From contig CAWEYU010000005.1 in assembly GCA_963813405.1 (NCBI GenBank), forward strand, positions 28,122 through 92,121: 64,000 bases of DNA, read 5' to 3'. Below are positions 10,190-63,632 of this stretch, piece by piece; within the stretch, counting starts at the first letter, position 1, and each line of letters opens with the position of its first letter. The translations under genes were made by a program, and so were the position numbers. The notes beneath the pieces were generated by a model. It saw only the letters and a program-made list of their open reading frames with translations. It was not told the DNA's origin and searched no databases. Source of the DNA: an uncultured Bacteroidales bacterium. GTDB taxonomy: Bacteria; Bacteroidota; Bacteroidia; Bacteroidales; VadinHA17.

Positions 10190-10224
10190 ATATATAGTCA
10201 GGCTGCAGTACCCAATACTGTCGT

Positions 10225-10266
10225 AACCGGCGGAGGGATTTCTTCCTTAGCGCCGGTTTTTTTTGT
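10225..10266 (+). terminator. rho-independent terminator
   Basis: 8-bp stem aaccggcg/cgccggtt (10225-10232 / 10251-10258) followed by a T run of at least 8. Confidence 0.65.
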
Positions 10267-10445
10267 GCCCGAAATTGACTCATGATTTGAAATCTCTGGT
10301 CTTTTAGCCCCCTTGAGAGCCCGCCCTGAACGAAGTGAATGAGGTGGTGGTGGGTTGATAATCAGCAGTTCAGGTTAATATTAATCTTAATCCGTTCTTA
10401 ATCCTGAATTAACCCGCAATTAATCTGTCCAGACTTTCTTAAACC

Positions 10446-10453
10446 TAACTTTG
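10446..10453 (+). promoter_or_regulatory. Bacteroidota -7 promoter motif (TAnnTTTG) for the PUL
   Basis: TAACTTTG lies 29 nt upstream of the probable susC-like ATG (10482). It is a motif match only. Confidence 0.4.
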
Positions 10454-10481
10454 AAAAATTATGGTCAATTATATGCAACCC

Positions 10482-13466: not shown

Positions 13467-13468
13467 TC

Positions 13469-14956: not shown

Positions 14957-14996
14957 AAAATTCAATTCGGTTTGTATAACTAAATGATTATCAATT

Positions 14997-16259
14997 ATGA
15001 AAAAAAAGATTCTTATTTCAAGTGTTCTAATGTTGATGACAGCAGTAGTTGTAATTCAAAGCTGTAAAAAGAGTGCAACTCCTCTCAACCTTGGAACGTT
15101 AATGGCAGGCACCATCGATTTAAATGCTGCCGCTGCTCCCACGAATGTACCGGTCATGCCCACTATAACGGCAACTTTTACAACTGATGTTGATGCGGCA
15201 ACCGCTACAGCGACAAATATAACGCTTACTCAGGATTTTGATGGCGCTGACATACCTCTGACAATTACTGTTGCCGGGAAAGTTGTAACAATAATGCCCA
15301 CCGCCAATCTGGGAAATGGAACTCTTTATAAGCTTGCCGTTACCGCAGGATTAAAAGCTACTAACGGTCAGCTGCTTACCGCAATAAACCGTTCGTTTAC
15401 TACCCTGGGTGCCTTCCTTCCCAAAGGAGTATTCGCTTACTGGAATTTTGATGGAAATGCAAATGACCAGACCGGAATTTACAACGGGGCAACAAGTACA
15501 GCTATTACTTATGTACCAGGTCGTAACGCTACAGCAGGACAGGCTGCACAGTTTAACGGGACAACCTCACTTATTCAGGTTCCTACCGCCAATGCACTTG
15601 TTAATACCAGTGACTTCTCTTTAAGTTTCTGGATGAAAGATGACACCACAGCAAAACGCGATCAATTTGTACTGGGTATAGCCGCATGGATGGGATTCCA
15701 GTTCGAGTATAATAGCAATATCTATGGCACAGGTAATACTGCACAGATAGGTCAGTGCAAACTGGCAGCTCAATACAGCTACGGCGGTACAACTCCAGGT
15801 TCAACCTCACAGGACTTATGGCTTGATGGCCAGGGTGCTACCAAGGATAATGGCGGATGGCAGGGATGGACCTTCAGCAAAGCCCTGGTTACAGGTGGTG
15901 GAACAGGCGTTAACGGTTTGTTAGCTCAAAAGTGGGCTCAGATCGTATGTACATATAACTCTACCACTAAGATTGGCACCATGTATATAAATGGTCAGAA
16001 AATGAAGGAACAGGATTTTAATCTCTATCCCGTTCCACTGTTGAATGCAACAGGACTGAAATTTGCTGGAAATGCAACTAATAACACTTTCGTTTTTGGT
16101 TTTATCCAGGATAAGGTCAATCCTACAATTACAGATAGCTGGGCTGACTATAATAATACTGCAAATGGCCATTTCAAAGGTCTTCTGGATGATGTGGCAA
16201 TCTATCACACTGTATTGACCCCTGCAATTATAACACTCATGTATAACTCTGGAAAATAG
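14997..16259 (+). CDS. surface lipoprotein with an Ig-like domain and a LamG/ConA-like lectin domain (SusE/F-position protein)
   Basis: Lipobox VVIQSC. Ig-like N-domain (ITATFTTDVDAATATATNITLTQD...VAGKVVTIMP). LamG-type core (FSLSFWMK...YINGQK...LDDVAIYHTVL). Confidence 0.65.
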   Translation: MKKKILISSVLMLMTAVVVIQSCKKSATPLNLGTLMAGTIDLNAAAAPTNVPVMPTITATFTTDVDAATATATNITLTQDFDGADIPLTITVAGKVVTIMPTANLGNGTLYKLAVTAGLKATNGQLLTAINRSFTTLGAFLPKGVFAYWNFDGNANDQTGIYNGATSTAITYVPGRNATAGQAAQFNGTTSLIQVPTANALVNTSDFSLSFWMKDDTTAKRDQFVLGIAAWMGFQFEYNSNIYGTGNTAQIGQCKLAAQYSYGGTTPGSTSQDLWLDGQGATKDNGGWQGWTFSKALVTGGGTGVNGLLAQKWAQIVCTYNSTTKIGTMYINGQKMKEQDFNLYPVPLLNATGLKFAGNATNNTFVFGFIQDKVNPTITDSWADYNNTANGHFKGLLDDVAIYHTVLTPAIITLMYNSGK

Positions 16260-16282
16260 TATAACATTTTCCAATAACTCGA

Positions 16283-16319
16283 AAAGGGAGGGTACTGCTG
16301 GCCCTTCCTTTTCTTTTTA
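16283..16319 (+). terminator. intra-PUL hairpin with T tract (terminator or attenuator)
   Basis: 10-bp stem aaagggaggg / cccttccttt with one G-U pair and a 9-nt loop, followed by tctttttat. Confidence 0.5.
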
Positions 16320-16336
16320 TTTGCTATCTTTTCGCT

Positions 16337-18295
16337 ATGAAAAACAGATTAATCTGGCTTTGCTGTTTGATATTTTTCATAGGTATCCTGTCATGCAGGA
16401 AAGATACCTCAAACAAAAATGCGGGAATAATTCAACTCACAAGTGTGAAGATTGGCAATTCAACCCTTAATGTTAGCAGCAATGTAGTTAACGTAGCCAC
16501 AGACCAGCCAATACAGTTTATATTTTCCAGCGCGGTGGATACCAATTCAATTAAAAAGGTAATCACCCTTCAAAATTCAGGCGGTACCCCTGTAGCCTGT
16601 TCTTTCACTCCCGGGAATAATCTGACAGCACTCACCCTCACTACCTATCCTGTACTGCAATATTCCACTGATTATACTCTGGTAATTTCTTCTGCCCTGC
16701 ACGGATTGAAAGGAGAGACTTTTTCAGGTGTACAGTATCAGTTTACAACAATTGCAGGTTCCATGACAATTGATTCAATTAGCATCAACGGATTAAACGT
16801 GCCAGCTTCAGCATTACAAAATATTGATCCTAAAAAAATAAACATTCGGGTAACCTTTTCCCAGCCCCTTGATCCCAACAATTACAAAGCATATTTTTCT
16901 TTTACCGGACCCCCTTTATCCTTTGCTCTTGCGAACAACAACAAGACGACACTAATGACAAGTACGGCAAAGGCAAGTGGTCTGACAAAATATTCAATTG
17001 CTGTTTCCTCCGCATTGACCTCAGCAGGAGGCTTTATCTTCGGAGGATTTTCTTCCAGTTTCTATACAGCAATCGATTCCACGTACCAATATCCACAGAT
17101 AACGGATGATGATCTTCTGACACTGGTCCAGCAGCAAACCTTTAAATATTTCTGGGATTTTGGACATCCTTCGTGTGGTATGGCACGCGAACGTAATTCT
17201 TCGGGCGATATTGTAACAACAGGAGGTTCGGGCTTTGGCATTATGGCTATGATTGTGGCAATGCAAAGAGGCTTTATTTCCAGGTCGGATGGGATCACCA
17301 GACTGGATAAGATCCTTGGATTTCTGGAAACTTGCGACCGTTTTCATGGGGTCTGGCCCCATTGGTTAAATGGTGTAACGGGGAAAACTCAGCCATTTAG
17401 TCCTACCGACAATGGAGGAGATCTCGTTGAAACCTCCTTTATGATCCAGGGCCTGCTTGCTATGCGACAATACCTCGATTCTACCGTTGTTGCCGAGAAA
17501 ACGGAAATCAACAGGATAAATAATTTATTTAAAGCTGTGGAATTTGACTGGTTTACAAACGGTCAGAAAACGCTTTACTGGACATGGTCACCGAATTACG
17601 GATACAATCTTAAGATCCAGGGCTACAATGAAACGCTGATCACATATATCATTGCAGCTTCATCTCCGACACATTCCATAACAGCCGATACCTATACTTT
17701 GGGTTATGCGAACAACGGAGGAATCAAAAATGGTAAAAGCTATTTCAGTTATCTTTTGCCCCTTGGAGGAGACTATGGCGGACCTTTGTTTTTTACACAT
17801 TATTCGTTTTTAGGTCTCGATCCCAGGCATCTCAAAGATCAATATGCCGATTATTGGATTCAGAACGTAAACCAGTCTCTGATAAATTATACCTGGTGCG
17901 TTACCAATTCCAAAAAATATCCGGGTTATGGAACCGGTATCTGGGGACTGACAGCTTCCGATAATCCCTGGGGATATAATGCACAGTCTCCAACAAACGA
18001 CCTGGGGGTCATCACCCCCACTGCAGCCATTTCATCAATAGTATATACACCGGCTCAATCATTAAATGCATTGAAGACTGATTACTATTTTCTTGCGGAC
18101 CGTCTATGGGGTAATTATGGCTTTTATGATGCCTTTGATGTGACTGAGGGTTGGTGGGCAAGCTCTACTCTGGCTATCGATCAGGGACCAATTATTTGTA
18201 TGATTGAAAATTACAGGACAGCTCTTTTATGGAATTTGTTTATGTCAGCTCCTGAAATCAAAAACGGATTGACAAAACTTGGTTTTACATATTGA
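16337..18295 (+). CDS. glucoamylase-family (PF10091-type, GH144-like) candidate endo-beta-1,2-glucanase with an N-terminal Ig-like extension of about 250 aa
   Basis: Lipoprotein-like start (GILSC). Two Ig-like segments. The catalytic region is colinear with the next ORF (FKYFWDFGHPSCGMARER, GGSGFGIMA, GYNETLITYIIAASSPTH, AIDQGPIICMIENYR). The family assignment is recalled, not searched. Confidence 0.6.
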   Translation: MKNRLIWLCCLIFFIGILSCRKDTSNKNAGIIQLTSVKIGNSTLNVSSNVVNVATDQPIQFIFSSAVDTNSIKKVITLQNSGGTPVACSFTPGNNLTALTLTTYPVLQYSTDYTLVISSALHGLKGETFSGVQYQFTTIAGSMTIDSISINGLNVPASALQNIDPKKINIRVTFSQPLDPNNYKAYFSFTGPPLSFALANNNKTTLMTSTAKASGLTKYSIAVSSALTSAGGFIFGGFSSSFYTAIDSTYQYPQITDDDLLTLVQQQTFKYFWDFGHPSCGMARERNSSGDIVTTGGSGFGIMAMIVAMQRGFISRSDGITRLDKILGFLETCDRFHGVWPHWLNGVTGKTQPFSPTDNGGDLVETSFMIQGLLAMRQYLDSTVVAEKTEINRINNLFKAVEFDWFTNGQKTLYWTWSPNYGYNLKIQGYNETLITYIIAASSPTHSITADTYTLGYANNGGIKNGKSYFSYLLPLGGDYGGPLFFTHYSFLGLDPRHLKDQYADYWIQNVNQSLINYTWCVTNSKKYPGYGTGIWGLTASDNPWGYNAQSPTNDLGVITPTAAISSIVYTPAQSLNALKTDYYFLADRLWGNYGFYDAFDVTEGWWASSTLAIDQGPIICMIENYRTALLWNLFMSAPEIKNGLTKLGFTY

Positions 18296-18300
18296 ACTAT

Positions 18301-19665
18301 ATGAAAGACTCACATTTTTTTCTCCTTTTGATTCTGATACTATTCGGTGTTGCCGTTAGCACAATCACTGAGGAACAAACTAAGGAAAGAGATAAAACAA
18401 CAGAAATCAGAGAATTATCAGATGATTCACTTTTAACTCTGATTCAGTATCGGACATTCCAATATTTCTGGGACGGGGCTGAACCTGTTTCAGGGATGGC
18501 ACGTGAACGGTATCATGTTGACGGGATATATCCTGACAACGACAAAAACGTAATTACTTCCGGTGGTTCAGGTTTTGGTGTTATGGCAATTCTTGTTGGC
18601 ATTGAAAGAAAATTTATTACGAGGAACAATGGATTGAAAAGGCTTAAGAAAATTGTGGCTTTTCTTGCAACCTCTGACCGTTTTTATGGAGCCTGGTCTC
18701 ACTGGATGTATGGGGAAACAGGTAAAGTGAAACCGTTTTCTCCCAGGGACAATGGCGCAGACATAGTGGAGACCGCTTACCTGATGCAGGGGTTACTTGC
18801 TGTTCGTCAGTATTTTAAAGATGGCACTCCGGAAGAAAAAACCCTTGCTTCAGACATCGACAGGTTATGGAAAGACGTAGACTGGAACTGGTTCACAAAA
18901 GGAGGAGAAAAAGTAATTTACTGGCATTGGTCTCCCGATCATAACTGGGAAATGAATTTTCCTGTCAGAGGCTATAATGAGTGTCTTATCCTTTATGTCC
19001 TGGCAGCTTCTTCACCTACTCACCCTGTGGCGGCTGATGTTTATTACAAAGGATGGGCCAGAGACGGAGCAATAAAAAGTAATCACGAAAAATATGGTTA
19101 CTTACTCACCCTTAATCATAACGGATCTGAAGAATATGGCGGTCCTCTTTTCTGGGCTCATTATTCTTTCCTTGGTTTAAATCCGCATAACCTTAAAGAT
19201 ACTTATGCAGATTATTGGCAGGAGAACAAAAATCAGACACTTATAAACTGGCAATGGTGTGTAAATAATACAAATGGTTTTGCTGGTTATGGAAAAGATT
19301 GCTGGGGTCTGACGGCAAGTTATTCTATAAAGGGATATGACGCGCACAGTCCGGGTGTAAAAAGTGACCTTGGAGTAATTTCCCCTACTGCCGCACTCTC
19401 ATCTATTCCGTATTCACCCGAACAATCACTTAATGCGTTAAAGCATTTTTATTACAAACTGGGGGGGGAAATATGGGGGATCTATGGGTTTTATGATGCA
19501 TTCAGCGAGCAATTTAACTGGTATCCGAAAAGATATCTGGCAATAGACCAGGGCCCTGAGGTTGTGATGATAGAGAATTATAGAAGCGGACTTTTATGGA
19601 GACTTTTTATGAGTTGTCCTGAAGTGCAGAACGGATTAAATAAACTTGGCTTTAAATACGAATAA
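18301..19665 (+). CDS. glucoamylase-family (GH144-like) paralogue lacking the Ig extension
   Basis: The track start is TTG 18292; ATG 18301 is more likely. Its motifs parallel the previous ORF (FQYFWDGAEPVSGMARER, GGSGFGVMA, GYNECLILYVLAASSPTH, AIDQGPEVVMIENYR). Confidence 0.6.
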   Translation: MKDSHFFLLLILILFGVAVSTITEEQTKERDKTTEIRELSDDSLLTLIQYRTFQYFWDGAEPVSGMARERYHVDGIYPDNDKNVITSGGSGFGVMAILVGIERKFITRNNGLKRLKKIVAFLATSDRFYGAWSHWMYGETGKVKPFSPRDNGADIVETAYLMQGLLAVRQYFKDGTPEEKTLASDIDRLWKDVDWNWFTKGGEKVIYWHWSPDHNWEMNFPVRGYNECLILYVLAASSPTHPVAADVYYKGWARDGAIKSNHEKYGYLLTLNHNGSEEYGGPLFWAHYSFLGLNPHNLKDTYADYWQENKNQTLINWQWCVNNTNGFAGYGKDCWGLTASYSIKGYDAHSPGVKSDLGVISPTAALSSIPYSPEQSLNALKHFYYKLGGEIWGIYGFYDAFSEQFNWYPKRYLAIDQGPEVVMIENYRSGLLWRLFMSCPEVQNGLNKLGFKYE

Positions 19666-19666
19666 T

Positions 19667-21904
19667 ATGAAATCACAAAGCACTTTTCTTTTATTCATTG
19701 TTCTTTTTGCAAATTCTTGTACTCAGGCACCAAAGAAACCGGTTGTTGATCCGAAAAGTGAAGCGTCCATTGAAAACATATTGAAAAAAATGACCCTCGA
19801 AGAGAAAATCGGACAGCTGACCCTCTTTACAAGTGACTGGTCGGTGACAGGTGCAACAATTCGTAAGGATTATCTTGATCTGATAGACAAGGGACAAGTT
19901 GGCGCGATACTTAACGCTTATTCAGTGGATTTTGTGACAAAGCTGCAGAAGCAGGCTGTAGAAAAGACCAGGCTGGGAATTCCGCTTATCTTTGGCTATG
20001 ATGTCATTCACGGCCATCGGACGATTTTCCCAATTCCTATTGCTCAAGCATCCTCATGGGATCTGGCGGCCATAGAAAAGTCTGATCGTATTGCTGCAAC
20101 TGAAGCCTCTGCCGAAGGACTTAACTGGACTTATTCACCAATGGTGGACATAGCTCGTGATCCACGCTGGGGAAGGGTAATGGAAGGTGCAGGAGAGGAC
20201 CCCTTTCTTGGCGGTCTGATCGCTGCAGCAAGGGTCAGAGGCTTTCAGGGCAATAACCTGGCCGCTGATAATACCATACTGGCATGCGTAAAACACTTCG
20301 CCGCTTATGGCGCACCACAGGCAGGAAGAGACTATAATACTGTAGATATGTCCCAGCGGTCACTGTTTGAATGGTATTTACCCCCTTACAGGGCTGCCAT
20401 TACAGCAGGTGCAGCTTCAGTTATGACATCATTCAATGAGATTGCCGGTGTACCCTCTTCATCAAACAAATGGCTTCTTACTGATCTTCTTCGGAATGAA
20501 TGGAACTTTCAGGGTTTTGTGGTTTCAGATTATACTTCAATTAATGAGCTTATACCTCATGGCGTTGCTAAAGATGAGGCACAGGCAGCCGAACTTGCAA
20601 TAAATGCAGGGCTTGATATGGATATGATGGGAAGCATTTATTTAAATAACCTGAAAGAACTGATTAAGACGGGAAAAGTCACCGAAGAAACTGTCAATAT
20701 TGCAGTAAAAAGAGTCCTTACGGCTAAATATAAACTCGGATTATTTGATGATCCTTACAGATACTGTAACAAAAAACGTGAGGCAGATGAAATAATGACA
20801 AAAGAAAACCTGGATTTTGCCCGGAAATTTGCTTCTGAAAGCGTCGTATTATTAAAGAATGATAAAAGCACACTACCGATTAAGAATAACATAAAAACTA
20901 TCGCAGTAATTGGTCCACTTGCTGATTCAAAGCGTGATATGCTTGGCAGCTGGTCTGCTGCCGGTCAGTGGGAGAAATGTGTCACCTTACTCGAGGGAGT
21001 GAAAAATAAACTTAATGATAAAGTCAAGCTTATCTATTCTAAGGGATGTGATGTCAGCAACAAAAACATTGAAGGTTTCAGTGAGGCAATCAATACCGCC
21101 AGGCAAGCCGACTTTATTATCCTGGCGCTGGGAGAAAGTGCAGATATGAGTGGCGAAGCTGCCAGTCGGACCAGCCTGGAATTGCCTGGCGTTCAGATGG
21201 ATCTTGCAAAAAAAGTCATAGAAACAGGAGTGCCGGTTGCAGTTGTTCTTTTCAACGGGAGACCTCTTGTGATAGAAGAGCTTAATAAAATTGCTCCGGC
21301 AATACTGGAGGCATGGTTTGGAGGTACTCAGGCCGGCAATGGAGTTGCAGATGTGCTTTTCGGTGATGTTAATCCTTCAGGCAAACTCACAATGACATTT
21401 CCTAGAAATACCGGACAAATTCCGATATTTTACAGTGTTAAAAACACAGGAAGACCCGTTGATCCTGCCAATCCTGCACAGAAATATAAATCCAAATATC
21501 TTGATAGCCCGAATACTCCTTTGTTTCCATTTGGTTACGGGCTTGGTTATACTACTTTCAAATATTCGGACATAAAGATGAATAAAACATCTTATAAGAG
21601 AGGTGAATCGTTGGAAGCTTCTGTAAAAGTAACAAACACAGGCAACACTGATGGAGAGGAAATAGTTCAGCTTTACATCCATGACAGGGTGGGAGATGTC
21701 ACCCGACCTTTGAAAGAGCTGAAAGGATTTAAGAAAATAAGTATTAAAAAAGGAGAGACGATAGGCATCTCATTCACCATCAACATGAATGAACTCTCAT
21801 ACTATCATCAGGATATGAGTTTTACTTATGATCCCGGAGAATTTGACCTTTATATCGGACCTGATTCTGCAGAAGGGCTGGTGACCAGTTTTTCAATATT
21901 ATGA
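19667..21904 (+). CDS. bglX: GH3 beta-glucosidase
   Basis: ATG 19667 gives a signal peptide (the track start 19646 overlaps the upstream gene). GH3 motifs are present: GYDVIHGH, KHFAAYGAPQAGRDYN and the nucleophile context GFVVSDY. A C-terminal FnIII-like domain is also present. Confidence 0.85.
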   Translation: MKSQSTFLLFIVLFANSCTQAPKKPVVDPKSEASIENILKKMTLEEKIGQLTLFTSDWSVTGATIRKDYLDLIDKGQVGAILNAYSVDFVTKLQKQAVEKTRLGIPLIFGYDVIHGHRTIFPIPIAQASSWDLAAIEKSDRIAATEASAEGLNWTYSPMVDIARDPRWGRVMEGAGEDPFLGGLIAAARVRGFQGNNLAADNTILACVKHFAAYGAPQAGRDYNTVDMSQRSLFEWYLPPYRAAITAGAASVMTSFNEIAGVPSSSNKWLLTDLLRNEWNFQGFVVSDYTSINELIPHGVAKDEAQAAELAINAGLDMDMMGSIYLNNLKELIKTGKVTEETVNIAVKRVLTAKYKLGLFDDPYRYCNKKREADEIMTKENLDFARKFASESVVLLKNDKSTLPIKNNIKTIAVIGPLADSKRDMLGSWSAAGQWEKCVTLLEGVKNKLNDKVKLIYSKGCDVSNKNIEGFSEAINTARQADFIILALGESADMSGEAASRTSLELPGVQMDLAKKVIETGVPVAVVLFNGRPLVIEELNKIAPAILEAWFGGTQAGNGVADVLFGDVNPSGKLTMTFPRNTGQIPIFYSVKNTGRPVDPANPAQKYKSKYLDSPNTPLFPFGYGLGYTTFKYSDIKMNKTSYKRGESLEASVKVTNTGNTDGEEIVQLYIHDRVGDVTRPLKELKGFKKISIKKGETIGISFTINMNELSYYHQDMSFTYDPGEFDLYIGPDSAEGLVTSFSIL

Positions 21905-22845: not shown

Positions 22846-23715
22846 ATGTCTAAGACTGGTCATAAAATTTACATAGCAATACTGGTTGCGATAGTATCTT
22901 TCCTTTTCATTACAATTATTTACAGAGGTATATCCTATTATATGGTTGGGATTGAAGAAAGATTTTATCATCCCGATCATAATCTGTTAAAACCAAGTGG
23001 CATTCTTGGCCACGGCATGGGAATAATAGGATCTGTTTTGATGATTGCAGGTGTAATTATCTACATGATTCGGAAAAGATACCGCATATTTGCCAGGATG
23101 GGGGTATTAAAACACTGGCTTGAATTTCACATATTTCTTTGTACTCTTGGCCCAATAATGGTTCTTTTTCATACCGCCTTTAAATTCGGTGGATTAGTGG
23201 CAATAAGTTTCTGGAGTATGGTAGCAGTGTTTCTGAGTGGCATAATCGGCAGGTTTATTTATATACAAATCCCAAGAACGATTGAGGGACGTGAACTTAA
23301 TTTTAATGAAATAAGGGAATTGAAAAGCGATGTTGCCGGATTGGTAAAAAGTTCATACAAATTAGATGAAGAAAGTTATAATATAATTGTCGCTTCTATT
23401 AAAAAAAAGGTTGAGGTGATACATGGAAATCCGATTGTAAGTTTTTTCAGGAAACGTTCCGATGACAGAAGAGCTTTAAAGTCGGTAAAGAGATTACTTA
23501 GGCAAAAAGAAATGGCTAAAACTGATTCCAGAATAATAGTTGCTATGGTAAAAGATGATGTAAAGCTCAACAGGAAAATGGAGAACCTCGATACTATGCG
23601 TAATCTGTTTAAGTACTGGCATGTTGTACATTCTCCATTTGCCCTTCTGATGTTAATTATCATGGTTGTTCATGTTGCAGTTACAATTGTACTTGGTTAT
23701 CGATGGATTTTTTAG
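22846..23715 (+). CDS. His-rich polytopic inner-membrane protein (possible b-haem carrier), first gene of the cytochrome cluster
   Basis: The track start is TTG 22837; ATG is at 22846. There are about 5 TM helices carrying His (GILGHGMGIIG, KHWLEFHIFLC, VLFHTAF, YWHVVHSPFALLMLIIMVVHVAV). A charged loop of about 100 aa lies between TM4 and TM5. Function is inferred only. Confidence 0.5.
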   Translation: MSKTGHKIYIAILVAIVSFLFITIIYRGISYYMVGIEERFYHPDHNLLKPSGILGHGMGIIGSVLMIAGVIIYMIRKRYRIFARMGVLKHWLEFHIFLCTLGPIMVLFHTAFKFGGLVAISFWSMVAVFLSGIIGRFIYIQIPRTIEGRELNFNEIRELKSDVAGLVKSSYKLDEESYNIIVASIKKKVEVIHGNPIVSFFRKRSDDRRALKSVKRLLRQKEMAKTDSRIIVAMVKDDVKLNRKMENLDTMRNLFKYWHVVHSPFALLMLIIMVVHVAVTIVLGYRWIF

Positions 23716-25049
23716 ATATGGAACCACTCCTTGAAAAAATATTGATCTATTCTCTCACTATCATCCTTGCGGTGACGCTGGTTATCATTTACCTGCGGAA
23801 AAAGAGCAAAGAATCGAGAATAGTGGAAGAAAAAATTAAGAAAGCTAAAGAATCAGGCATGCATGAACCTGTTTCTCTGCACCCTTATATTGATGAAACA
23901 AGGTGTATCCAGACAGGAGCATGTATTACGGCCTGTCATGAACATGATATATTAGGAATCAGGAACGGCAAGGCTACGATTATTAATGCCTCCAGGTGTG
24001 TCGGACATGGTGCATGTTTTCATGCGTGTCCTACCGAAGCAATAAGTTTGCGGATAGGGACTGAGCAGAGAGGAGTGGACCTTCCACATATAAATTCAAA
24101 TTTTGAGACTAATGTGTCGGGTATTTTTATTGCAGGGGAACTTGGAGGTATGGGCCTTATTAAAAATGCAACAGTGCAAGGCAGAAAGGCTGCGGAGAAC
24201 ATTGCTAAAACAATAAAAAAAGATCATCCTGCTACTTATGATCTGATAATAGTAGGTGCAGGTCCTGCAGGCATTGCAGCAAGTCTCACAGCAAAGAAAC
24301 TGGGTCTGAAATTCCTGGTACTGGAACAGGATACTCTGGGAGGGACAGTTTTTACTTTCCCAAGAAAAAAAATCGTTATGACTTCTCCGATGGACCTTCC
24401 ACTTGTAGGGAAAGTTAAACTATTTGAGACAAGCAAAGCTGAACTGCTTGATCTCTGGCAGACAGCCCTTCAGAAAAACGAGATTACTATCACAGAAAAT
24501 TCCAAAGTAGAATCAATTGTCTGTGAGAATGGGATATTTAAGGTATTTACTTTGAGAGGAGATAATTTTACAGCTGCAACAGTCTTGCTGGCAATCGGAA
24601 GACGTGGAACACCACGCAAATTGAACGTTCCGGGTGAGATGACAGAAAAAGTTGCCTATCGGTTACTTGAACCCGAGGTAATTTCAGGTAAGGATATTCT
24701 TGTTGTCGGGGGAGGTGATTCTGCAGTCGAAACAGCCTTATTGCTGGCAGAACAGAACCATGTTACAATTTCCTACCGGAGTGATGCATTTAATCGTATA
24801 AAGTCTAAGAATAACACCGCGTTAAATGAAGCCGTTGCTGCTGGAAAATTAGATATCCTGCTTGGTACAAATCTTACATCAATAGAGGAGGGTAACATAA
24901 ATCTTTCATTTGGCAAGGATGGAAAGCAACTTAAGTTAAAAAATGACCTCGTATATATTTTTGCCGGAGGAGAGCTTCCAACACAATTTCTGGAGAAAGC
25001 TGGAATAAAAATAACCAAGAAATTTGGTGAGACAGTTTTGAAACATTAA
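23703..25049 (+). CDS. membrane-anchored 4Fe-4S ferredoxin-domain protein fused to an FAD/NAD(P)-binding oxidoreductase
   Basis: Overlaps the upstream ORF by 13 nt. N-terminal TM (ILIYSLTIILAVTLVIIYL). Two Cys clusters (CIQTGACITAC, CVGHGACFHACP). Dinucleotide folds IIVGAGPAGIAAS and LVVGGGDSAVETA resemble thioredoxin-reductase-type enzymes. Confidence 0.75.
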   Translation: MDFLDMEPLLEKILIYSLTIILAVTLVIIYLRKKSKESRIVEEKIKKAKESGMHEPVSLHPYIDETRCIQTGACITACHEHDILGIRNGKATIINASRCVGHGACFHACPTEAISLRIGTEQRGVDLPHINSNFETNVSGIFIAGELGGMGLIKNATVQGRKAAENIAKTIKKDHPATYDLIIVGAGPAGIAASLTAKKLGLKFLVLEQDTLGGTVFTFPRKKIVMTSPMDLPLVGKVKLFETSKAELLDLWQTALQKNEITITENSKVESIVCENGIFKVFTLRGDNFTAATVLLAIGRRGTPRKLNVPGEMTEKVAYRLLEPEVISGKDILVVGGGDSAVETALLLAEQNHVTISYRSDAFNRIKSKNNTALNEAVAAGKLDILLGTNLTSIEEGNINLSFGKDGKQLKLKNDLVYIFAGGELPTQFLEKAGIKITKKFGETVLKH

Positions 25050-25102
25050 TAAGACAACAGGACACAGGCCATGGGCACCAGGAGACACGTAAGATAATAT
25101 TT

Positions 25103-26722
25103 ATGTGGAGTAATTTAAAAAAAATATCCGCTGCAGTATTACTAATGGTTTTATCGTTCATAAGGACTGCTGCACAGATCTCACCCGGCGATCTGGCATC
25201 TCCCCATTCTCATCTCGAAGGACTCTCCAATTGTACCCAGTGCCATGTAATAGGAAACAAGGTTACTAATGAAAAATGTCTGATCTGCCATACCGAAATT
25301 CAGCAGAGACTGTCTTCGGGAAAGGGATACCATACCTCTGCGGAAGTCTCCGGAAAGCAATGTACAGCTTGTCATAATGATCATCATGGGAAAAATTTCC
25401 AGCTTGTAAGGTTTGATACTGCAAAATTTGACCATAAACTTACCGGTTATACTTTATCGGTACCTCATGCTAAGAAAAAATGCGCCGATTGTCATGATAC
25501 AAAGTTCATTACAGATCAGAAAGTTAAGATAAAGAAGTACACCTTTATGGGTGTCGGAAAAGAATGTTTAAACTGTCATATTGATTATCATATAAAGACC
25601 CTTTCATCAGCTTGTCTTGATTGTCATAATCCGGACGTTTTTAAACCGGCAACAAATTTTAGTCATGAAAGGACAAAATTTAAACTTTCTGGAAAACATA
25701 AAGAGGTTGAATGTTTAAAATGCCATAAGTTAGAAGTGAAGGAGGGAAAGAAATTTCAGGTGTTCAATGGTATTCAGTTTAGCAGCTGTACCAATTGTCA
25801 TAAAGACCCCCATCAGAACAGATTTGGTCAGCTATGTACCCAGTGTCACAATGAGGAGACATTCAAGGTAGTCAAGGGAAACAATAAATTTGATCATAAT
25901 CTGACCCATTACAAACTGGAAGAGAAGCACCTGACAGTAAACTGCAAAGCCTGCCACAAGACTAATTTTACAGACCCCCTGAAATTCGGGAAATGCACCG
26001 ATTGTCATGCTGATTATCACAAGAAGCAATTTGTAAAGAATAATGTATCTCCCGATTGTACTCCCTGCCACACAGTAAAAGGATTCACTTCTTTTTCTTA
26101 TACCATTGATCAGCATGGTGACGGTAACTTTCCACTTAAGGGCTCTCATGTAGCAGTTCCCTGTAATGAGTGTCATAAAAAACAAAAAGACTGGAGCTTT
26201 AAAGGGATAGGAATTACTTGCAGTGATTGTCACACAGATATACATAAGACATATATAGGAACAAAATATTACCCGGGGGCAAATTGCACTATCTGCCATA
26301 ATGATACAGGGTGGGATAATATAACTTTCGATCATTCAAAAACTAATTTTGTGCTAACCGGCGTTCATTTGAAACAAAATTGCCGGGCTTGTCATATTCC
26401 AATGGATTCTGCCGGGATTGTTCAACGCGATCCAAAGGGAATTATAATGCAGAAATTTACCGGTTTTACAAAAGGATGTACTGAATGTCATACAGATAAT
26501 CATTTCGGACAATTTGCGAAAAACGGCATTTCAACTTGTACCGATTGTCATCAGACAGATAACTGGAAAGCGACAAAATTCGATCATAATTTAACTGCCT
26601 TTAAACTGGATGGCAAACATATAAATGTTGCATGTGCAAAGTGCCATAAGCCTGAAAAGCAGGGATCCAATTTTTATGTTAAATACAAATTAAAAGATTA
26701 TAGATGCGAATCGTGTCATTGA
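25103..26722 (+). CDS. secreted multihaem cytochrome c, 20 CXXCH
   Basis: Signal peptide MWSNLKKISAAVLLMVLSFIRTAAQ. I counted 20 CXXCH motifs by eye. They sit in reiterated F-x-H-x2-H...CxxCH units resembling c7/c3-type polymers. The protein ends in CESCH-stop. Confidence 0.9.
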   Translation: MWSNLKKISAAVLLMVLSFIRTAAQISPGDLASPHSHLEGLSNCTQCHVIGNKVTNEKCLICHTEIQQRLSSGKGYHTSAEVSGKQCTACHNDHHGKNFQLVRFDTAKFDHKLTGYTLSVPHAKKKCADCHDTKFITDQKVKIKKYTFMGVGKECLNCHIDYHIKTLSSACLDCHNPDVFKPATNFSHERTKFKLSGKHKEVECLKCHKLEVKEGKKFQVFNGIQFSSCTNCHKDPHQNRFGQLCTQCHNEETFKVVKGNNKFDHNLTHYKLEEKHLTVNCKACHKTNFTDPLKFGKCTDCHADYHKKQFVKNNVSPDCTPCHTVKGFTSFSYTIDQHGDGNFPLKGSHVAVPCNECHKKQKDWSFKGIGITCSDCHTDIHKTYIGTKYYPGANCTICHNDTGWDNITFDHSKTNFVLTGVHLKQNCRACHIPMDSAGIVQRDPKGIIMQKFTGFTKGCTECHTDNHFGQFAKNGISTCTDCHQTDNWKATKFDHNLTAFKLDGKHINVACAKCHKPEKQGSNFYVKYKLKDYRCESCH

Positions 26723-28770
26723 CGATATTAAGTCTATTTACCATACTTCTCAATGGGCAAACTAATTCACCCCATGGGGTTGCCTTTAAGGTAAGCTGCA
26801 AAACCTGTCATAGTTCAAAAGGCTGGCAACTCGATAAATCAATCTACTCCTTTGATCACAATACCACAAAATTACCACTCGCCGGCCAGCACGTCCAGGT
26901 AAGCTGCAGGCAATGCCATCCAACCCTGGTATTTTCGGAAGCAAAGACCAATTGTATCGATTGCCATATGGATATTCATCAGGCGACGGTTGGATTTAAC
27001 TGCACAAGATGCCATACACCGCAATCGTGGCTGGTAAATAACATAAACAATATTCACCAGATGAGCCGTTTCCCATTAATTGGGGCTCACAGGACAGCAG
27101 ATTGTTCACAATGTCACAAGTCTGAAAGTCTGTTGCGTTTTGATGCTATCGGAATTAATTGTGTGGATTGCCATCTGGATAAGTATCTGGCCACCACAAA
27201 TCCAAACCATCCCCAGGGGGGGATATCCAGGGAATGCATCTTATGCCACTCTATGACAGCATTTGAATGGGGTGGAGCAGGCTTTAACCATAATGTATTT
27301 CCATTGGTTCAGGGACATTCAGTACCTAAATGCTCCGATTGCCATAAAACATCAGGTTTTTCCGGTTTAAGTACAAATTGCAATTCCTGTCACCAGCCTG
27401 ATTTTGCAGCGGCCAATAATCCTGATCATAATGCATCAAAATTTGCCACAACATGCCAGGACTGTCATTCACTTAGTCCAGGTTGGAAACCTGCAACATT
27501 CACTCATTCAAATTTCTCCCTGGCACTTGGTCATTCAACTGCAGCTTGTATCGATTGCCATACAGGGGGAAATTATACCTCAACTTCAACTGCATGTTAT
27601 GCATGTCATCAGCAGAATTATTCATCAGCTAAAAATCCAAATCATATATCAGCCGGTTTTTCTCAGCTTTGCCAGGATTGTCATTCACTGAAGCCAGGAT
27701 GGAAGCCGACTGGTTTCAATCATAGCGGATTCCCGCTTACCCTGGGTCATTCAGTACCAGTTTGTTCAGATTGTCATAAAACAACAAGCTATGCTTCCAC
27801 TCCAACTGCTTGTTATTCATGTCATCAGGTTGATTTTACAGCAGCATTAAATCCTAACCATTCTACCGCAGGATTTCCAACCAGTTGTGAGACATGTCAT
27901 ACTACAACTCCAGGATGGAAACCTGCGTCATTCAACCACACGAGTTTCCCTCTTACACTTGGGCATGCAATACCCACCTGTGCTGATTGCCATAAAGGTA
28001 ATTATACAGTGACATCGATCGACTGTTATGCATGTCACCAGAAGGATTATACAGCAACTACAAATCCGAATCATAATTTATCTGGTATTCCTACTGCCTG
28101 CAAGACATGTCACACCACGAATCCTGGATGGACTCCTGCGACATACAATCATACTACTTTCCCGCTTACGCTCGGACATGCCACACCAACCTGTAACGAT
28201 TGCCATAAAGGTAATTATACAGTGACATCAACCGACTGTTATGCATGTCACCAGAAGGATTATACAGCAACTACAAATCCGAATCATAATTTATCTGGTA
28301 TTCCTACTGCCTGCAAGACATGTCACACCACTAATCCGGGATGGACTCCGGCAACTTACAACCATACTGTTTTTCCGCTTACGCTCGGACATGCCACACC
28401 AACCTGCAACGATTGTCACAAAGGAAATTATACAACAACATCCACCGATTGCTACGCCTGTCATACTGCTGATTACAATAACAGCACCAATCCTAACCAT
28501 AGAACATTAGGATTTGCAACTGTATGTACACAATGTCATACTACTACTCCGGGATGGAAACCTGCGTCATATACTCAGCATGACGCTCAATTCTTTCCGA
28601 TTTATTCCGGCCGACATCTTGGCAGATGGACTAAATGCAGCGATTGTCATACAAATACAACTAATTATCTTTTGTTTGATTGTATCCACTGCCATACAAG
28701 TTCGCATAGAGGAAGCAATTACTCCAATGCGCAATGTTATAGCTGCCACCCAAGAGGAACAGGAGGATAG
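26704..28770 (+). CDS. secreted multihaem cytochrome c, 28 CXXCH (7 N-terminal, 6 tri-haem modules, 3 C-terminal)
   Basis: The start overlaps the upstream stop by 19 nt. Short signal peptide MRIVSLTILSLFTILLNGQ. I counted 28 CXXCH motifs by eye. Confidence 0.9.
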   Translation: MRIVSLTILSLFTILLNGQTNSPHGVAFKVSCKTCHSSKGWQLDKSIYSFDHNTTKLPLAGQHVQVSCRQCHPTLVFSEAKTNCIDCHMDIHQATVGFNCTRCHTPQSWLVNNINNIHQMSRFPLIGAHRTADCSQCHKSESLLRFDAIGINCVDCHLDKYLATTNPNHPQGGISRECILCHSMTAFEWGGAGFNHNVFPLVQGHSVPKCSDCHKTSGFSGLSTNCNSCHQPDFAAANNPDHNASKFATTCQDCHSLSPGWKPATFTHSNFSLALGHSTAACIDCHTGGNYTSTSTACYACHQQNYSSAKNPNHISAGFSQLCQDCHSLKPGWKPTGFNHSGFPLTLGHSVPVCSDCHKTTSYASTPTACYSCHQVDFTAALNPNHSTAGFPTSCETCHTTTPGWKPASFNHTSFPLTLGHAIPTCADCHKGNYTVTSIDCYACHQKDYTATTNPNHNLSGIPTACKTCHTTNPGWTPATYNHTTFPLTLGHATPTCNDCHKGNYTVTSTDCYACHQKDYTATTNPNHNLSGIPTACKTCHTTNPGWTPATYNHTVFPLTLGHATPTCNDCHKGNYTTTSTDCYACHTADYNNSTNPNHRTLGFATVCTQCHTTTPGWKPASYTQHDAQFFPIYSGRHLGRWTKCSDCHTNTTNYLLFDCIHCHTSSHRGSNYSNAQCYSCHPRGTGG
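27283..28569 (+). repeat. six tandem in-frame tri-haem modules (3 x 216 bp, then 3 x 213 bp)
   Basis: Module consensus: [FY]NH-x2-FPLTLGH-x4-C-x-DCH-(9-11)-C-Y-x-CH-(9)-NPNH-(10)-C-x2-CH-x3-PGW-x-PA. Units 27991-28203 and 28204-28416 are about 94% identical, with a perfect core of about 100 nt. Confidence 0.9.
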
Positions 28771-28854
28771 AGTTTATTATATCAATGTGATTATTATCAT
28801 ATATGACCAGACAAGACTTAGAGTTTAATTCCGTTAATTAACAGTGTAAAGTCA

Positions 28855-30063
28855 ATGCGATTCCTGTCTTTAATAATTATAGTGATCATGCTGATCTTTA
28901 ATAGGTTGCAGACTGATTCTCCACATGGCAGCAATTTTAAAATTAGCTGCAAGGTTTGTCATAGTTCAAAAGGCTGGCAACTCGATAAATCAATCTACTC
29001 CTTTGACCATAATAAAACCAGGTTACCTTTGACAGGTCAGCATACAATTTTGAACTGCAGAGAATGTCATCTTACTCTGGTATTTTCAGAAGCAAAAACA
29101 AATTGCATCGATTGTCATAAAGATATTCACCAGGCAACCGTAGGCCTCGAATGTTCAAGATGCCATACTCCCAATTCCTGGCTTGTCCAGAATATTAGTG
29201 ATATCCACCAGATTAGTCGTTTCCCTTTACTTGGAGCGCACAGAACCGCTGATTGTGAACAATGTCACAAATCGGAAAGCCTGCTTCGGTTTGATGTAAC
29301 CGGCATAAATTGCATAGATTGTCATCGCCAAACCTATCAGGGGACCACGAATCCAAATCATGTACAGGCTGGATTTTCACAGGATTGTGCATCATGCCAC
29401 TCAATTACTGCATTTCAGTGGGGAGGTGCGGGCTTTGACCATAGGATTTTTCCCCTGGAACAGGGGCATTCCGGTTTGAAATGTTCGGATTGCCACACTG
29501 CAGGCCCGTTTACTTCTACAAGTTCAGCGTGCTACTCCTGTCATCAACAGCAATTTACAGCAGCAAAAAACCCCGATCATATTACGGCCAATTTTTCGAC
29601 CAACTGTAAGGATTGTCATTCCCTGAGTCCAGGATGGAAGCCAGCCACATTTGACCATTCAACCTTTCCACTGACGCTTGGGCATGCAACGCCAAGTTGT
29701 GCAGATTGCCATAAGGGTAACTTTACAAACCTGTCTAAAGATTGCAATTCCTGTCACCAGACGGATTATAACAATTCTACAAACCCCAATCATAAAACAT
29801 TAGCTTTTTCCACAACATGTACGCAATGTCATACAACAAATCCGGGTTGGACTCCGGCAACCTACACACAGCATGATACTCAGTTCTTTCCAATCTATTC
29901 CGGAAGACACAGGGGAACATGGACCCTTTGTAAAGATTGTCATACAAACACCACCAATTACCTGCTGTTCGATTGTATCCATTGCCATACAAATGTCCAC
30001 CGGGGGAACAATTATACCAATGCACAATGTTATACTTGCCATCCCAGGGGGACAAACAATTAA
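28855..30063 (+). CDS. secreted multihaem cytochrome c, 16 CXXCH (short paralogue of the 28-haem protein)
   Basis: Signal peptide MRFLSLIIIVIMLIFNRLQ. The N-terminal 7-haem and C-terminal 3-haem regions match ORF 26704, but only two tri-haem modules lie between them. The 50-nt tract 28957-29006 is identical to 26806-26855. Confidence 0.9.
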   Translation: MRFLSLIIIVIMLIFNRLQTDSPHGSNFKISCKVCHSSKGWQLDKSIYSFDHNKTRLPLTGQHTILNCRECHLTLVFSEAKTNCIDCHKDIHQATVGLECSRCHTPNSWLVQNISDIHQISRFPLLGAHRTADCEQCHKSESLLRFDVTGINCIDCHRQTYQGTTNPNHVQAGFSQDCASCHSITAFQWGGAGFDHRIFPLEQGHSGLKCSDCHTAGPFTSTSSACYSCHQQQFTAAKNPDHITANFSTNCKDCHSLSPGWKPATFDHSTFPLTLGHATPSCADCHKGNFTNLSKDCNSCHQTDYNNSTNPNHKTLAFSTTCTQCHTTNPGWTPATYTQHDTQFFPIYSGRHRGTWTLCKDCHTNTTNYLLFDCIHCHTNVHRGNNYTNAQCYTCHPRGTNN

Positions 30064-30075
30064 AATGAATAAATT

Positions 30076-31683
30076 ATGAGGTTGTTGTTTTTTATATCAT
30101 TTCTAATTTTAATATGTACAGAAATAGAAGGGCAAACAGGTGTCGAAAATCTGCAGGGAGTGGTATCTTTTATAAGTTCCCAGAATATTTATGTGAAGTT
30201 TAAATCGACAAATGGAATTTCTTCAGGAGATACTTTATATATTTCAGCTGGTGGGAAGATGATCCCGGCACTAAAAGTTAACAACCTCTCTTCAATCTCT
30301 TGTATTTGCACACCTTTGGTTAGTACCAGTTTCAAAGTCTCGCAAGTAATAACAGCAAAAGCAAATTATAAATCAAAAAGTCCGGCAGAAAAGAGAGTTG
30401 TGACAGGTACCAAAGTAAATCCGCCTCAACCAATTTATTCTGATACTGCGAGAAAGAAGGTTGTCTCAAAAGAGTTTCAGCAAAAAATAAATGGCAGCCT
30501 GGCTGCATATTCCTATTCAAGCTTCTCCAATACTTCTGCACCAGGTTCAAATCAATTAAGGTACACATTCTCTCTCAATGCGCGGAATATCCTCGACTCA
30601 AAGTTCTCTGTAAATACATATGTTTCATTCAGACATAAATTAGGTGACTGGAGTGCAGTAAGGAACGATATTTTTAACGCACTTAAAGTTTATGACCTTT
30701 CGGTTTCTTATGATCCCAATAAGACAACACACTTAAGTGTGGGCAGAAAAATTAACTATAATATCTCAAGTATCGGGGCAATGGATGGGCTTCAGTTTGA
30801 AAAGTTCATTAACAGGTTCGGTTTTGGTGTAGTTGCGGGATTCAGACCATCATATGCCAATTATGGATTTGACAGCAGGCTTTTTCAGTATGGAGCCTAC
30901 CTGGCATTAAATTCAAAACCTGATGAAGTATTTCACCAGACATCTTTCGCAGTAATGGAGCAGATGTACAATTCCAAAACCGACAGGAGGTTTCTTTATT
31001 TTCAGCATACAAACATGCTGATAAAAAATGTATACTTTTTCGGTACTTTGGAAGCGGATCTGTATAAGGTTCAGAAAGACAAGCCCCAGAATACATTTGA
31101 TGTGACCAGTTTATACTTATCACTGCGGCTGAATATTACAAAAAACCTCTCAATAACGGGCTCATATGATGCAAGAAAGAACATAACATACTATGAGACA
31201 TATAAATCACTTCTCGACAGTGTTTTGATTAACCAGACCCGGCAGAGTATAAGGGTGCAGATAAATTACCGGATAAAAAACAATATAATGTTTGGAGTTC
31301 AATCTGATTACAGGTACTTGAAAACCGACCCTGCTCCAACAAGAAATGTCTATGGATACCTGACATACAGTAAGATTCCGGGGATAGGTGTATCAGTTAC
31401 TTTGTCAGGGACATATCTTGAATCAGGCTTTTTAAAGGGCCAGGTGCTGCAGGCCAGGCTTTCCCGCGACCTGTTCCAGGGAAAGTTTCAGGCGGAGGCA
31501 GGGTATCAATATGTTGATTACAGGCTTCCTGAGAGTCAATTAAGTACACTTCAGCATATTGGAGAATTTGGTATATACTGGCAATTTGCAAAGAAGATGT
31601 CATTTTCAGCAAATTATGAGGGCACTTTTGAGAGGAAAAACACTTATGACAGAATTTATTTGCAGCTCAGAAAGAGATTCTGA
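30076..31683 (+). CDS. predicted outer-membrane beta-barrel protein (porin-like partner of the cytochromes)
   Basis: Signal peptide. A soluble N-domain of about 100 aa. About 400 aa of alternating hydrophobic/polar strands rich in Y/G/S/N. C-terminal ...IYLQLRKRF ends in an aromatic residue. Starts 12 nt after the 16-haem gene. Confidence 0.6.
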   Translation: MRLLFFISFLILICTEIEGQTGVENLQGVVSFISSQNIYVKFKSTNGISSGDTLYISAGGKMIPALKVNNLSSISCICTPLVSTSFKVSQVITAKANYKSKSPAEKRVVTGTKVNPPQPIYSDTARKKVVSKEFQQKINGSLAAYSYSSFSNTSAPGSNQLRYTFSLNARNILDSKFSVNTYVSFRHKLGDWSAVRNDIFNALKVYDLSVSYDPNKTTHLSVGRKINYNISSIGAMDGLQFEKFINRFGFGVVAGFRPSYANYGFDSRLFQYGAYLALNSKPDEVFHQTSFAVMEQMYNSKTDRRFLYFQHTNMLIKNVYFFGTLEADLYKVQKDKPQNTFDVTSLYLSLRLNITKNLSITGSYDARKNITYYETYKSLLDSVLINQTRQSIRVQINYRIKNNIMFGVQSDYRYLKTDPAPTRNVYGYLTYSKIPGIGVSVTLSGTYLESGFLKGQVLQARLSRDLFQGKFQAEAGYQYVDYRLPESQLSTLQHIGEFGIYWQFAKKMSFSANYEGTFERKNTYDRIYLQLRKRF

Positions 31684-63554: not shown

Positions 63555-63632
63555 TGGGGTGGAAGATGGGGCTCGAACCCACGACCTTCGGAACCACAAT
63601 CCGACGTTCTAACCGACTGAACTACATCCACC
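63555..63632 (-). tRNA. tRNA-His (anticodon GTG) with genomically encoded G-1 and CCA
   Basis: Hand-folded cloverleaf on the minus strand. Acceptor GTGGATG/CTTCCAC (one U-U mismatch). D arm GTTC-AGTCGGTTA-GAAC. Anticodon arm TCGGA-TTGTGGT-TCCGA. T arm GTGGG-TTCGAGC-CCCAT. Discriminator C, then CCA. An extra 5-prime G pairs with C73. Confidence 0.85.

Follow-up and report, generated by a model that had tools for sequence, protein, structure and literature searches.

How is a protein with 28 haem-binding motifs put together from one repeated unit, to which family does the unit belong, and what could such a protein do for a cell? The question is raised by a gene in a stretch of 64,000 nucleotides (nt) from an uncultured Bacteroidales bacterium of the VadinHA17 lineage (assembly GCA_963813405.1, contig CAWEYU010000005.1), referred to below as the window. 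The gene encodes a modular c-type cytochrome, and residues 194–622 of its product, which correspond exactly to positions 27283–28569, are six head-to-tail modules of 72, 72, 72, 71, 71 and 71 amino acids (216, 216, 216, 213, 213 and 213 nt). Each module carries three CXXCH motifs and exactly three other histidines, located in the motifs [FY][NT]H, GH and NP[ND]H. As judged by profile comparison, the six repeats are concatenated c7-type tri-haem units, a probably all-bis-histidine variant of the design of GSU1996 from Geobacter sulfurreducens. Our reading of the locus as a whole, held with moderate confidence, is that the protein would be a c7-type tri-haem wire, its length set by the number of units, in a trans-envelope conduit of Bacteroidota and Ignavibacteriota.

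An earlier note, made from the letters of the window alone, had described six tandem tri-haem modules in residues 194–622 and a 213/216-bp periodicity. Both were recovered here, the modules by mapping of the open reading frame (ORF), the motifs and a module hidden Markov model (HMM), and the periodicity by Tandem Repeats Finder, which the note had proposed as a check, together with a repeat search. Tandem Repeats Finder returned a period of 213 with 2.7–3.1 copies at 27890–28558, picking up the three young 213-nt units only. The three older units are diverged, with 56–66% DNA identity and 47–62% protein identity, and the repeat search recovered them through sub-motif families present in 5–9 copies at a spacing of 213/216. 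The consensus motif given in the note holds overall, the exceptions being U1 and U2, which deviate from it (FTH, FSLALGH, CNSCH). The ORFs at 28028 and 28241, already suspected in the note to be shadows of the repeat, are read in frame +1 relative to the gene, with the same first 30 residues in both; they were rejected as real genes, being out-of-frame images of the repeat.

Ahead of the six canonical modules, the module HMM matches residues 117–193 (52 bits) and residues 50–110 and 74–123 (13–14 bits each), the clearest degenerate module being residues 117–193, at positions 27052–27282. Because the HMM also detects this seventh, degenerate copy, we read the protein as nine tri-haem units, of which six are canonical, in addition to a lone haem. 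The signal peptide is MRIVSLTILSLFTILLNGQ, without a lipobox cysteine.

Has the module been seen in other proteins? The earlier note implied that it was novel, and this did not hold. A new fold family was rejected on the strength of two matches. Against Pfam Cytochrome_C7 (PF14522), the 28-haem protein scores 106.5 bits (cut-off 24.8; 6e-31) in seven stretches lying across the module borders, such as residues 245–303. A profile built from 71 three-module windows of the family and searched against all PDB sequences matches GSU1996 (3OV0) at an E-value of 1e-8, collinear across two domains. The precomputed annotation of all listed homologues also assigns PF14522. The best PDB hit of the three-module profile was the 16-haem cytochrome HmcA (1Z1N, 6e-12), and further matches were the CD fragment of GSU1996 (3OUE), nine-haem cytochromes and domain C of GSU1996 (1RWJ). 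PpcA was absent from the hits of this search; hhalign against PpcA, whose sequence was checked against 1OS6, gave a weak alignment (E 0.005) in the same shifted register as described below.

Three CXXCH motifs in about 70 residues, with the order and spacing of c7 haems I, III and IV, are present in a register shifted by one haem. In this register haem I corresponds to the third CXXCH of a module, haem III to the first CXXCH of the module that follows, and haem IV to the second. The NPNH histidine, which would be the distal ligand of haem I, aligns with c7 His17. The GH histidine, which would be that of haem IV, aligns with c7 His47 and falls in the alignment one residue off the axial methionine of GSU1996. 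At the position of c7 His20, family modules have Ala, Ser or Leu, and the canonical c7 set of distal ligands is incomplete. An additional invariant histidine, that of [FY]NH, lies 14 residues ahead of the module's first CXXCH; assigned by elimination, it should be the ligand of haem III, replacing c7 His20.

The conservation of these residues was followed across 1009 modules, which come from 122 proteins. All nine Cys and His of the CXXCH motifs and the NPNH histidine are 100% conserved, and the GH histidine 99%, while a histidine 6–12 residues upstream of the GH histidine, that of NH, occurs at 1135 of 1136 sites. Across 120 homologues the number of histidines rises linearly with the haem count, with a slope of 2.14 and an intercept of −2.7 (r 0.995). 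His-Met ligation was rejected, as no methionine is conserved in the family (the 688 residues of the 28-haem protein contain four). The pattern supports, without proving, bis-histidine ligation of all haems, and it agrees with the earlier argument that three CXXCH motifs and three invariant histidines per module fit this stoichiometry.

In GSU1996, four c7-like tri-haem domains form a linear haem array with edge-to-edge gaps of 3–5 Å, and one haem in each domain is His-Met ligated (PMC10138318). It has been proposed to stem from concatenated c7 modules (PMC11492766). The 28-haem protein resembles it in being a single chain of head-to-tail tri-haem c7-like units, in which the histidine upstream of haem I and the paired CXXCH motifs of haems III and IV align. 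By analogy, a linear haem array with gaps of 3–5 Å is expected here as well. Unlike GSU1996, however, the family has no His-Met haem, a histidine lying one residue from the axial methionine of GSU1996, and no equivalent of c7 His20, the [FY]NH histidine being present instead. It also reaches about 30 units as opposed to four, and differs in an extra lone haem, special end caps, other phyla and another gene neighbourhood. PpcA (1OS6) shares with the module a length of about 70 residues and, in the shifted register, the order and spacing of the CXXCH motifs, and its three haems are bis-histidine ligated; unlike the module, it is a free-standing periplasmic shuttle, and the similarity is very weak. 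HmcA (1Z1N, 16 haems) and NhcA (19HC, nine haems) also have c3/c7-like domains. In contrast to the present family they have a compact build, in which the domains differ from one another and are fixed in number; near-identical tandem units and a copy-number ladder are lacking, and they are part of membrane redox complexes in sulfate respiration. The principle of a c7 polymer is already known; what is new is the ligand pattern, the scale, the taxonomic spread and the gene cluster.

The fixed increments in which, according to the note, such a module would extend a haem chain are supported by the haem counts of the family. A word-indexed search returned more than 4955 homologues, mostly from metagenome-assembled genomes (MAGs) of Bacteroidota. 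Among the best 120 of these, the haem counts are 22, 25, 28, 31, 34, 37, 40, 43, 46 and 49; a count of 3n+1 is found in 101 of the 120, at about 25 amino acids per haem (r 0.997). A scan of one genome per species, with the motif IYSGRHxGxW as one family-defining pattern, found at least 590 genomes with the family, mostly Bacteroidota and Ignavibacteriota. Hosts include Bacteroidales, Flavobacteriaceae, Saprospiraceae, Chitinophagales, Cytophagales, Ignavibacteriota, Chlorobiota, KSB1 and Vicinamibacteria, and the cultured Cytophagales among them are Emticicia aquatica and Lacihabitans. At the scanned loci the modular cytochrome has 13 to 85 haems, following 3n+1 in 81 of 103 genes. An exhaustive profile search covering 1.84 billion representatives yielded 6698 hits at E ≤1e-3, of which 4079 were at E ≤1e-10, and the largest member, a metagenome representative, has 2321 amino acids and 94 CXXCH motifs. 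A member of 2135 amino acids with 85 CXXCH motifs lies on the complete chromosome of a Saprospiraceae MAG (OZ245894.1; about 10000–16300 of locus L056).

The window itself holds a second, shorter member of the family, a 16-haem paralogue of 402 amino acids directly downstream, with N- and C-terminal ends as in the 28-haem gene and two canonical modules only. The N-terminal part of the 28-haem gene and the corresponding part of the paralogue have 75–81% DNA identity. The two canonical modules of the paralogue are closest to U1 and U6 of the 28-haem gene, which suggests that units are gained and lost internally. In other genomes the paralogue is optional and its position shifts.

How did two of the units come to be nearly identical? 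Positions 27991–28203 and 28204–28416 differ at 13 of 213 positions (93.9% identity) and share a perfect core of 99 nt, in line with the approximate figures given in the note (about 13 and about 100 nt). In module register the core falls inside U4 and U5, which differ at 22 positions; a perfect run of at least 99 nt has a probability of about 5e-6 if these differences are placed at random. Third-codon positions differ at 0 of 33 sites within the tract and at 16 of 38 outside it (Fisher 7e-6). Since third-codon differences are also absent inside the tract, selection at the protein level cannot explain its identity.

The note had left the choice between recent duplication and homogenisation, and of these homogenisation is the better supported. 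Had one 213-nt unit been duplicated in tandem very recently, a near-identical pair would result, and tandem arrays in the family do vary in copy number, with 100% identical modules in some homologues. Yet an orthologue from an independent metagenome (P0014; 83% identical, with the same gene order and the same 402-aa paralogue) also has 688 amino acids, and its six modules already pair one-to-one with those of the window at 79–87% identity. We used it as an outgroup at the protein level. Inside the tract, U4 and U5 of the window are identical at 33 of 34 residues, compared with 23 of 34 for U4 and U5 of the orthologue, 26 of 34 for U4 of the window against U4 of the orthologue, and 23 of 34 for the two U5 copies. 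Outside the tract the corresponding values are 33, 30, 36 and 33 of 37. U4 and U5 thus match their own orthologues outside the tract and each other inside it, and the identity is limited to the 99-nt internal tract rather than extending over the whole unit, which makes a duplication very unlikely. On this comparison the tract is a gene conversion that took place after the lineages of the window and the orthologue split, not a new duplication. The first 30 residues of U5 and U6 also co-vary by lineage: in the window they contain YNH..GHA, in the orthologue FAH..GHS.

Repeats of 213 nt are difficult to assemble and polish, the protein of the window is on record from one contig only, and degenerate-pattern scans of metagenome contigs gave no second DNA copy of this exact gene, all of which would fit an assembly or polishing artefact as the source of the near-identical units or of the 99-nt tract. 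However, the reading frame and every haem motif are intact, the total length is the same as in the independent orthologue, and the copies can still be told apart by 13 differences. Near-identical modules are also widespread in the family: 33 of 121 homologues contain a module pair at least 90% identical (74 of 121 at 80% or more), and these come from many independent assemblies, including megabase contigs and one complete chromosome. This argues against an artefact, which we regard as extremely improbable. As far as the module comparisons go, homogenisation is general across the family. One independent genome has a 213-nt array with 4.2 copies. In four homologues (P0031, P0080, P0099 and P0045) some modules two or three units apart are 100% identical, which suggests recent duplication of multi-unit blocks, that is, higher-order repeats.

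The modular cytochrome gene is one of six overlapping or closely spaced genes on the forward strand at 22846–31683 (Table 1), which appear to form one operon. A scan for promoters and terminators at 22.3–32 kb was uninformative, as terminator counts equalled those in shuffled sequence and the promoter models do not cover Bacteroidota. The order of a 289-aa membrane protein, a 448-aa flavoprotein, a 20(23)-haem cytochrome, the modular cytochrome (with or without the short paralogue) and a protein of about 535 amino acids is kept in about 70 of the 80 loci compared, which come from different species. The type strain Emticicia aquatica CECT 8858, an aerobic freshwater bacterium, has the full five-gene cluster with a 43-haem modular cytochrome.

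Table 1. Features of the modular cytochrome gene and its cluster in the window (aa, amino acids; TM, transmembrane; FAD, flavin adenine dinucleotide; SPI, signal peptidase I).
Feature	Position	Strand	Description
Putative dihaem cytochrome b	22846..23715	+	289 aa; about five TM segments; first gene of the cluster
Fe-S flavoprotein	23703..25049	+	448 aa; N-terminal anchor, 2x[4Fe-4S], FAD/NAD(P) domain; putative cytoplasmic electron input
20-haem cytochrome	25103..26722	+	539 aa; 20 CXXCH; SPI-type signal peptide
28-haem modular cytochrome	26704..28770	+	688 aa; 28 CXXCH, 57 His, 4 Met
N-terminal 193 aa	26704..27282	+	Signal peptide, lone haem (C32), six haems in degenerate modules
Module U1	27283..27498	+	aa 194-265; 216 nt; module HMM 127 bits
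Module U2	27499..27714	+	aa 266-337; 216 nt; module HMM 126 bits
Module U3	27715..27930	+	aa 338-409; 216 nt; module HMM 129 bits
Module U4	27931..28143	+	aa 410-480; 213 nt; module HMM 132 bits; 87% identity with its counterpart in orthologue P0014
Homogenised tract, U4 copy	28020..28118	+	99 nt; identical to 28233-28331
Module U5	28144..28356	+	aa 481-551; 213 nt; mosaic, with U6-like start and core identical to U4
Homogenised tract, U5 copy	28233..28331	+	99 nt; identical to 28020-28118
Module U6	28357..28569	+	aa 552-622; 213 nt; module HMM 127 bits; best match is last module of the 402-aa paralogue (70%)
C-terminal three-haem cap	28570..28770	+	aa 623-688; family-specific motif IYSGRHxGxW
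16-haem paralogue	28855..30063	+	402 aa; ends as in the 28-haem gene; two canonical modules only
Putative outer-membrane beta-barrel	30076..31683	+	535 aa; conserved N-terminal domain of about 110 aa

For the 289-aa protein no Pfam family scored above threshold, and a profile search of the PDB returned noise only. Among 46–59 orthologues, His56, His95, His109, His259, His262 and His276 are invariant. The pairs His95/His109 and His262/His276 are each 14 residues apart and lie inside hydrophobic segments, and a 14-residue spacing of histidines is classic for two transmembrane b haems. Below threshold, DUF4405 is matched by 41 of 46 members (best E 6e-5) and the cytochrome b561-type family Ni_hydr_CYTB by 11 of 46. 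Binding of haem b has been demonstrated for DUF4405 proteins, which are proposed to move electrons across the membrane (PMC11334425). The flavoprotein, whose gene adjoins that of the membrane protein in most loci, matches Pfam Fer4_10/Fer4_7 at residues 60–115 and Pyr_redox_3 at E 1e-40, and has a transmembrane helix at residues 12–30 followed by RKKSK. The haem count of the third gene product is nearly fixed, at 20 in 53 of 71 orthologues and 23 in 13 of 71, compared with the range of 13–85 in the neighbouring modular cytochrome. Its match to the DmsE/MtrA-type family TIGR03508 is weak (47.5 bits, within a range of 44.9–47.5, against a cut-off of 192), too low to establish homology to MtrA/DmsE. 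All three cytochromes of the cluster have SPI-type signal peptides without a lipobox.

The 535-aa gene adjoins the modular cytochrome in nearly all loci, including those where the upstream genes are absent. In cultured Lacihabitans spp. (L064, 9947–14945, and L065), a 43- or 49-haem modular cytochrome and the barrel-like gene stand without the three upstream genes, and the upstream neighbour is a GcvP-like gene. As only these two genes are found together in Lacihabitans, they form the tightest pair of the cluster. The 535-aa protein has a signal peptide and no transmembrane helix. Segments of alternating hydrophobicity cover 17% of its positions compared with 7% in shuffles; of 61 orthologues, 49 end in Phe, and a few members of its family give weak matches to DUF2490 and OMP_b-brl.

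Directly upstream of the cluster, at 10461–21904 on the same strand, lies a polysaccharide-utilisation locus with SusC-like and SusD-like genes, a Big_5/LamG protein, two PF10091 glucoamylase-like proteins and a GH3 glycosidase, a gene content that assigns the window to Bacteroidota. The only RNA gene found in the window by ARAGORN and Rfam is a tRNA-His (GTG) at 63555–63631 on the reverse strand.

How does the cluster compare with known conduits? As in MtrCAB of Shewanella and OmaB-OmbB-OmcB of Geobacter, multihaem cytochrome genes adjoin a gene for a barrel, here a putative one, and there is the weak DmsE/MtrA-type match. Unlike in those systems, no similarity of the putative barrel to MtrB or to a Pfam porin family could be detected, there is no lipoprotein outer cytochrome, one cytochrome is variable in length, and the cluster brings its own flavoprotein and putative dihaem-b input in place of a quinol dehydrogenase. 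Putative new porin-cytochrome clusters ("novel PCCs") have been noted in Bacteroidetes MAGs (PMC6344600). The number of haem motifs varies among close homologues in Burkholderiales and Anaerolineales (PMC7399161), and giant multihaem cytochromes have been described in Saprospiraceae (PMC11495043). Those cytochromes resemble the present family in that haem number differs between close homologues, and wire or capacitor roles have been suggested for them; the difference is that motif counts were reported there, and no tri-haem unit, 3n+1 rule, conserved cluster or concerted evolution. In the open-access papers searched, neither the tri-haem unit of this family nor its 3n+1 rule, the cluster with flavoprotein and putative dihaem b or the concerted evolution of the units was found described.

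From these elements a route for electrons can be proposed. A cytoplasmic donor would reduce the FAD and Fe-S clusters of the flavoprotein, which would pass electrons to haem b of the membrane protein. From haem b they would move to the 20-haem cytochrome and on to the modular wire, paired with an outer-membrane barrel, and the cluster would serve as a trans-envelope (extracellular) electron-transfer conduit. Each unit would add three closely packed low-spin haems, so that the length of the wire would be set by the number of units. This number may shift by recombination between repeats, and the same process would homogenise neighbouring units. GSU1996 has a scale of about 1 nm per haem. On that scale, 28 haems would span roughly the width of the periplasm, and 50–90 haems would be far longer. 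A more specific version, which we put forward only tentatively, is an undescribed, self-contained conduit of Bacteroidota and Ignavibacteriota in which the Fe-S flavoprotein, fed by NAD(P)H or ferredoxin, and the dihaem b would bypass the quinone pool. Repeat recombination would tune the reach of the wire in three-haem steps, its length would act as an evolvable ruler of envelope or capsule thickness or of the distance to an acceptor, and the whole would provide polysaccharide-fermenting Bacteroidota with an extracellular electron sink.

Would the number of units set reach, or rather charge capacity? The modular cytochrome could be a periplasmic electron store, or capacitor, instead of a through-conduit. 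This role has been proposed for GSU1996, its closest solved relative (PMC10138318), and speculated on for giant Bacteroidota cytochromes (PMC11495043); a signal peptide without lipoprotein or type IX secretion system (T9SS) export signals fits the periplasm, and the haem number of the modular cytochrome varies freely next to a partner of fixed size. An electron store would not, however, explain why the gene is so tightly paired with that of a putative outer-membrane barrel, even in loci without the other cluster genes, or why the cluster brings its own putative membrane module for electron input, and members with 50–90 haems, if extended at about 1 nm per haem, would far exceed the periplasm. 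We consider a store unlikely, if a serious rival, and prefer a wire that spans the envelope.

Sequence does not tell the direction of flow in such a wire. Electrons could run inward, supplied by Fe(II), a cathode or a partner cell. The cluster could also serve aerobes outside respiration, for example in detoxification or in balancing their redox state, and its presence in the aerobic Cytophagales genera Emticicia and Lacihabitans and in activated-sludge Saprospiraceae (PMC11495043) would suit these possibilities. On the other side, the input module resembles flavoproteins linked to NAD(P)H or ferredoxin. All-bis-histidine ligation, moreover, usually gives low potentials, suited to electron export. 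We consider an inward flow or a non-respiratory role distinctly unlikely, and the flow would be outward.

Several observations weigh against an envelope-spanning wire built of c7 units. The signal peptide of the modular cytochrome is of the SPI type, with neither a lipobox nor a T9SS domain, which leaves an extracellular position unexplained. Searches of Pfam, NCBIfam and PDB sequences gave no match to the 535-aa protein, and its assignment as an outer-membrane barrel is suggested by the weak and indirect features listed above. Some hosts, such as Emticicia, are aerobic, a poor fit to anaerobic mineral respiration. As for the units, the comparison with known families that the note had called for found characterised c7 kin, as described, and at the same time left the protein below the cut-off of NCBIfam nanowire_3heme (TIGR04257; 32.1 bits, cut-off 40). 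Written with H for a distal histidine and C for a CXXCH motif, c7 reads H,H,C,H,C,C, whereas the family module reads H,C,H,H,C,C. When the whole 28-haem protein was compared with the PDB by phmmer, no match was returned. A full-length AlphaFold2 model computed with 47 homologues had a mean confidence (pLDDT) of 42 and was unusable, and fold searches with predicted haem-free models returned no match and so gave no structural support.

To our knowledge, concatenated tri-haem c7 units are otherwise known only from a few Geobacter proteins with 12–27 haems. Here, c7 concatenation forms a very large family, with members in at least 590 species genomes and some 4000 sequence clusters at an E-value of 1e-10. 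Its hosts belong to phyla that are not counted among the electroactive ones, and they include abundant degraders of polysaccharides in sediments, lakes and activated sludge. The 3n+1 rule provides a natural series of wires of graded length, suited to tests of how electron transfer depends on haem number, and Emticicia aquatica CECT 8858, cultured and with the full cluster, is a tractable candidate host. The repeat is also a clear bacterial example of concerted evolution within a coding tandem array. The conserved gene set suggests a complete route from the cytoplasm to the outer membrane.

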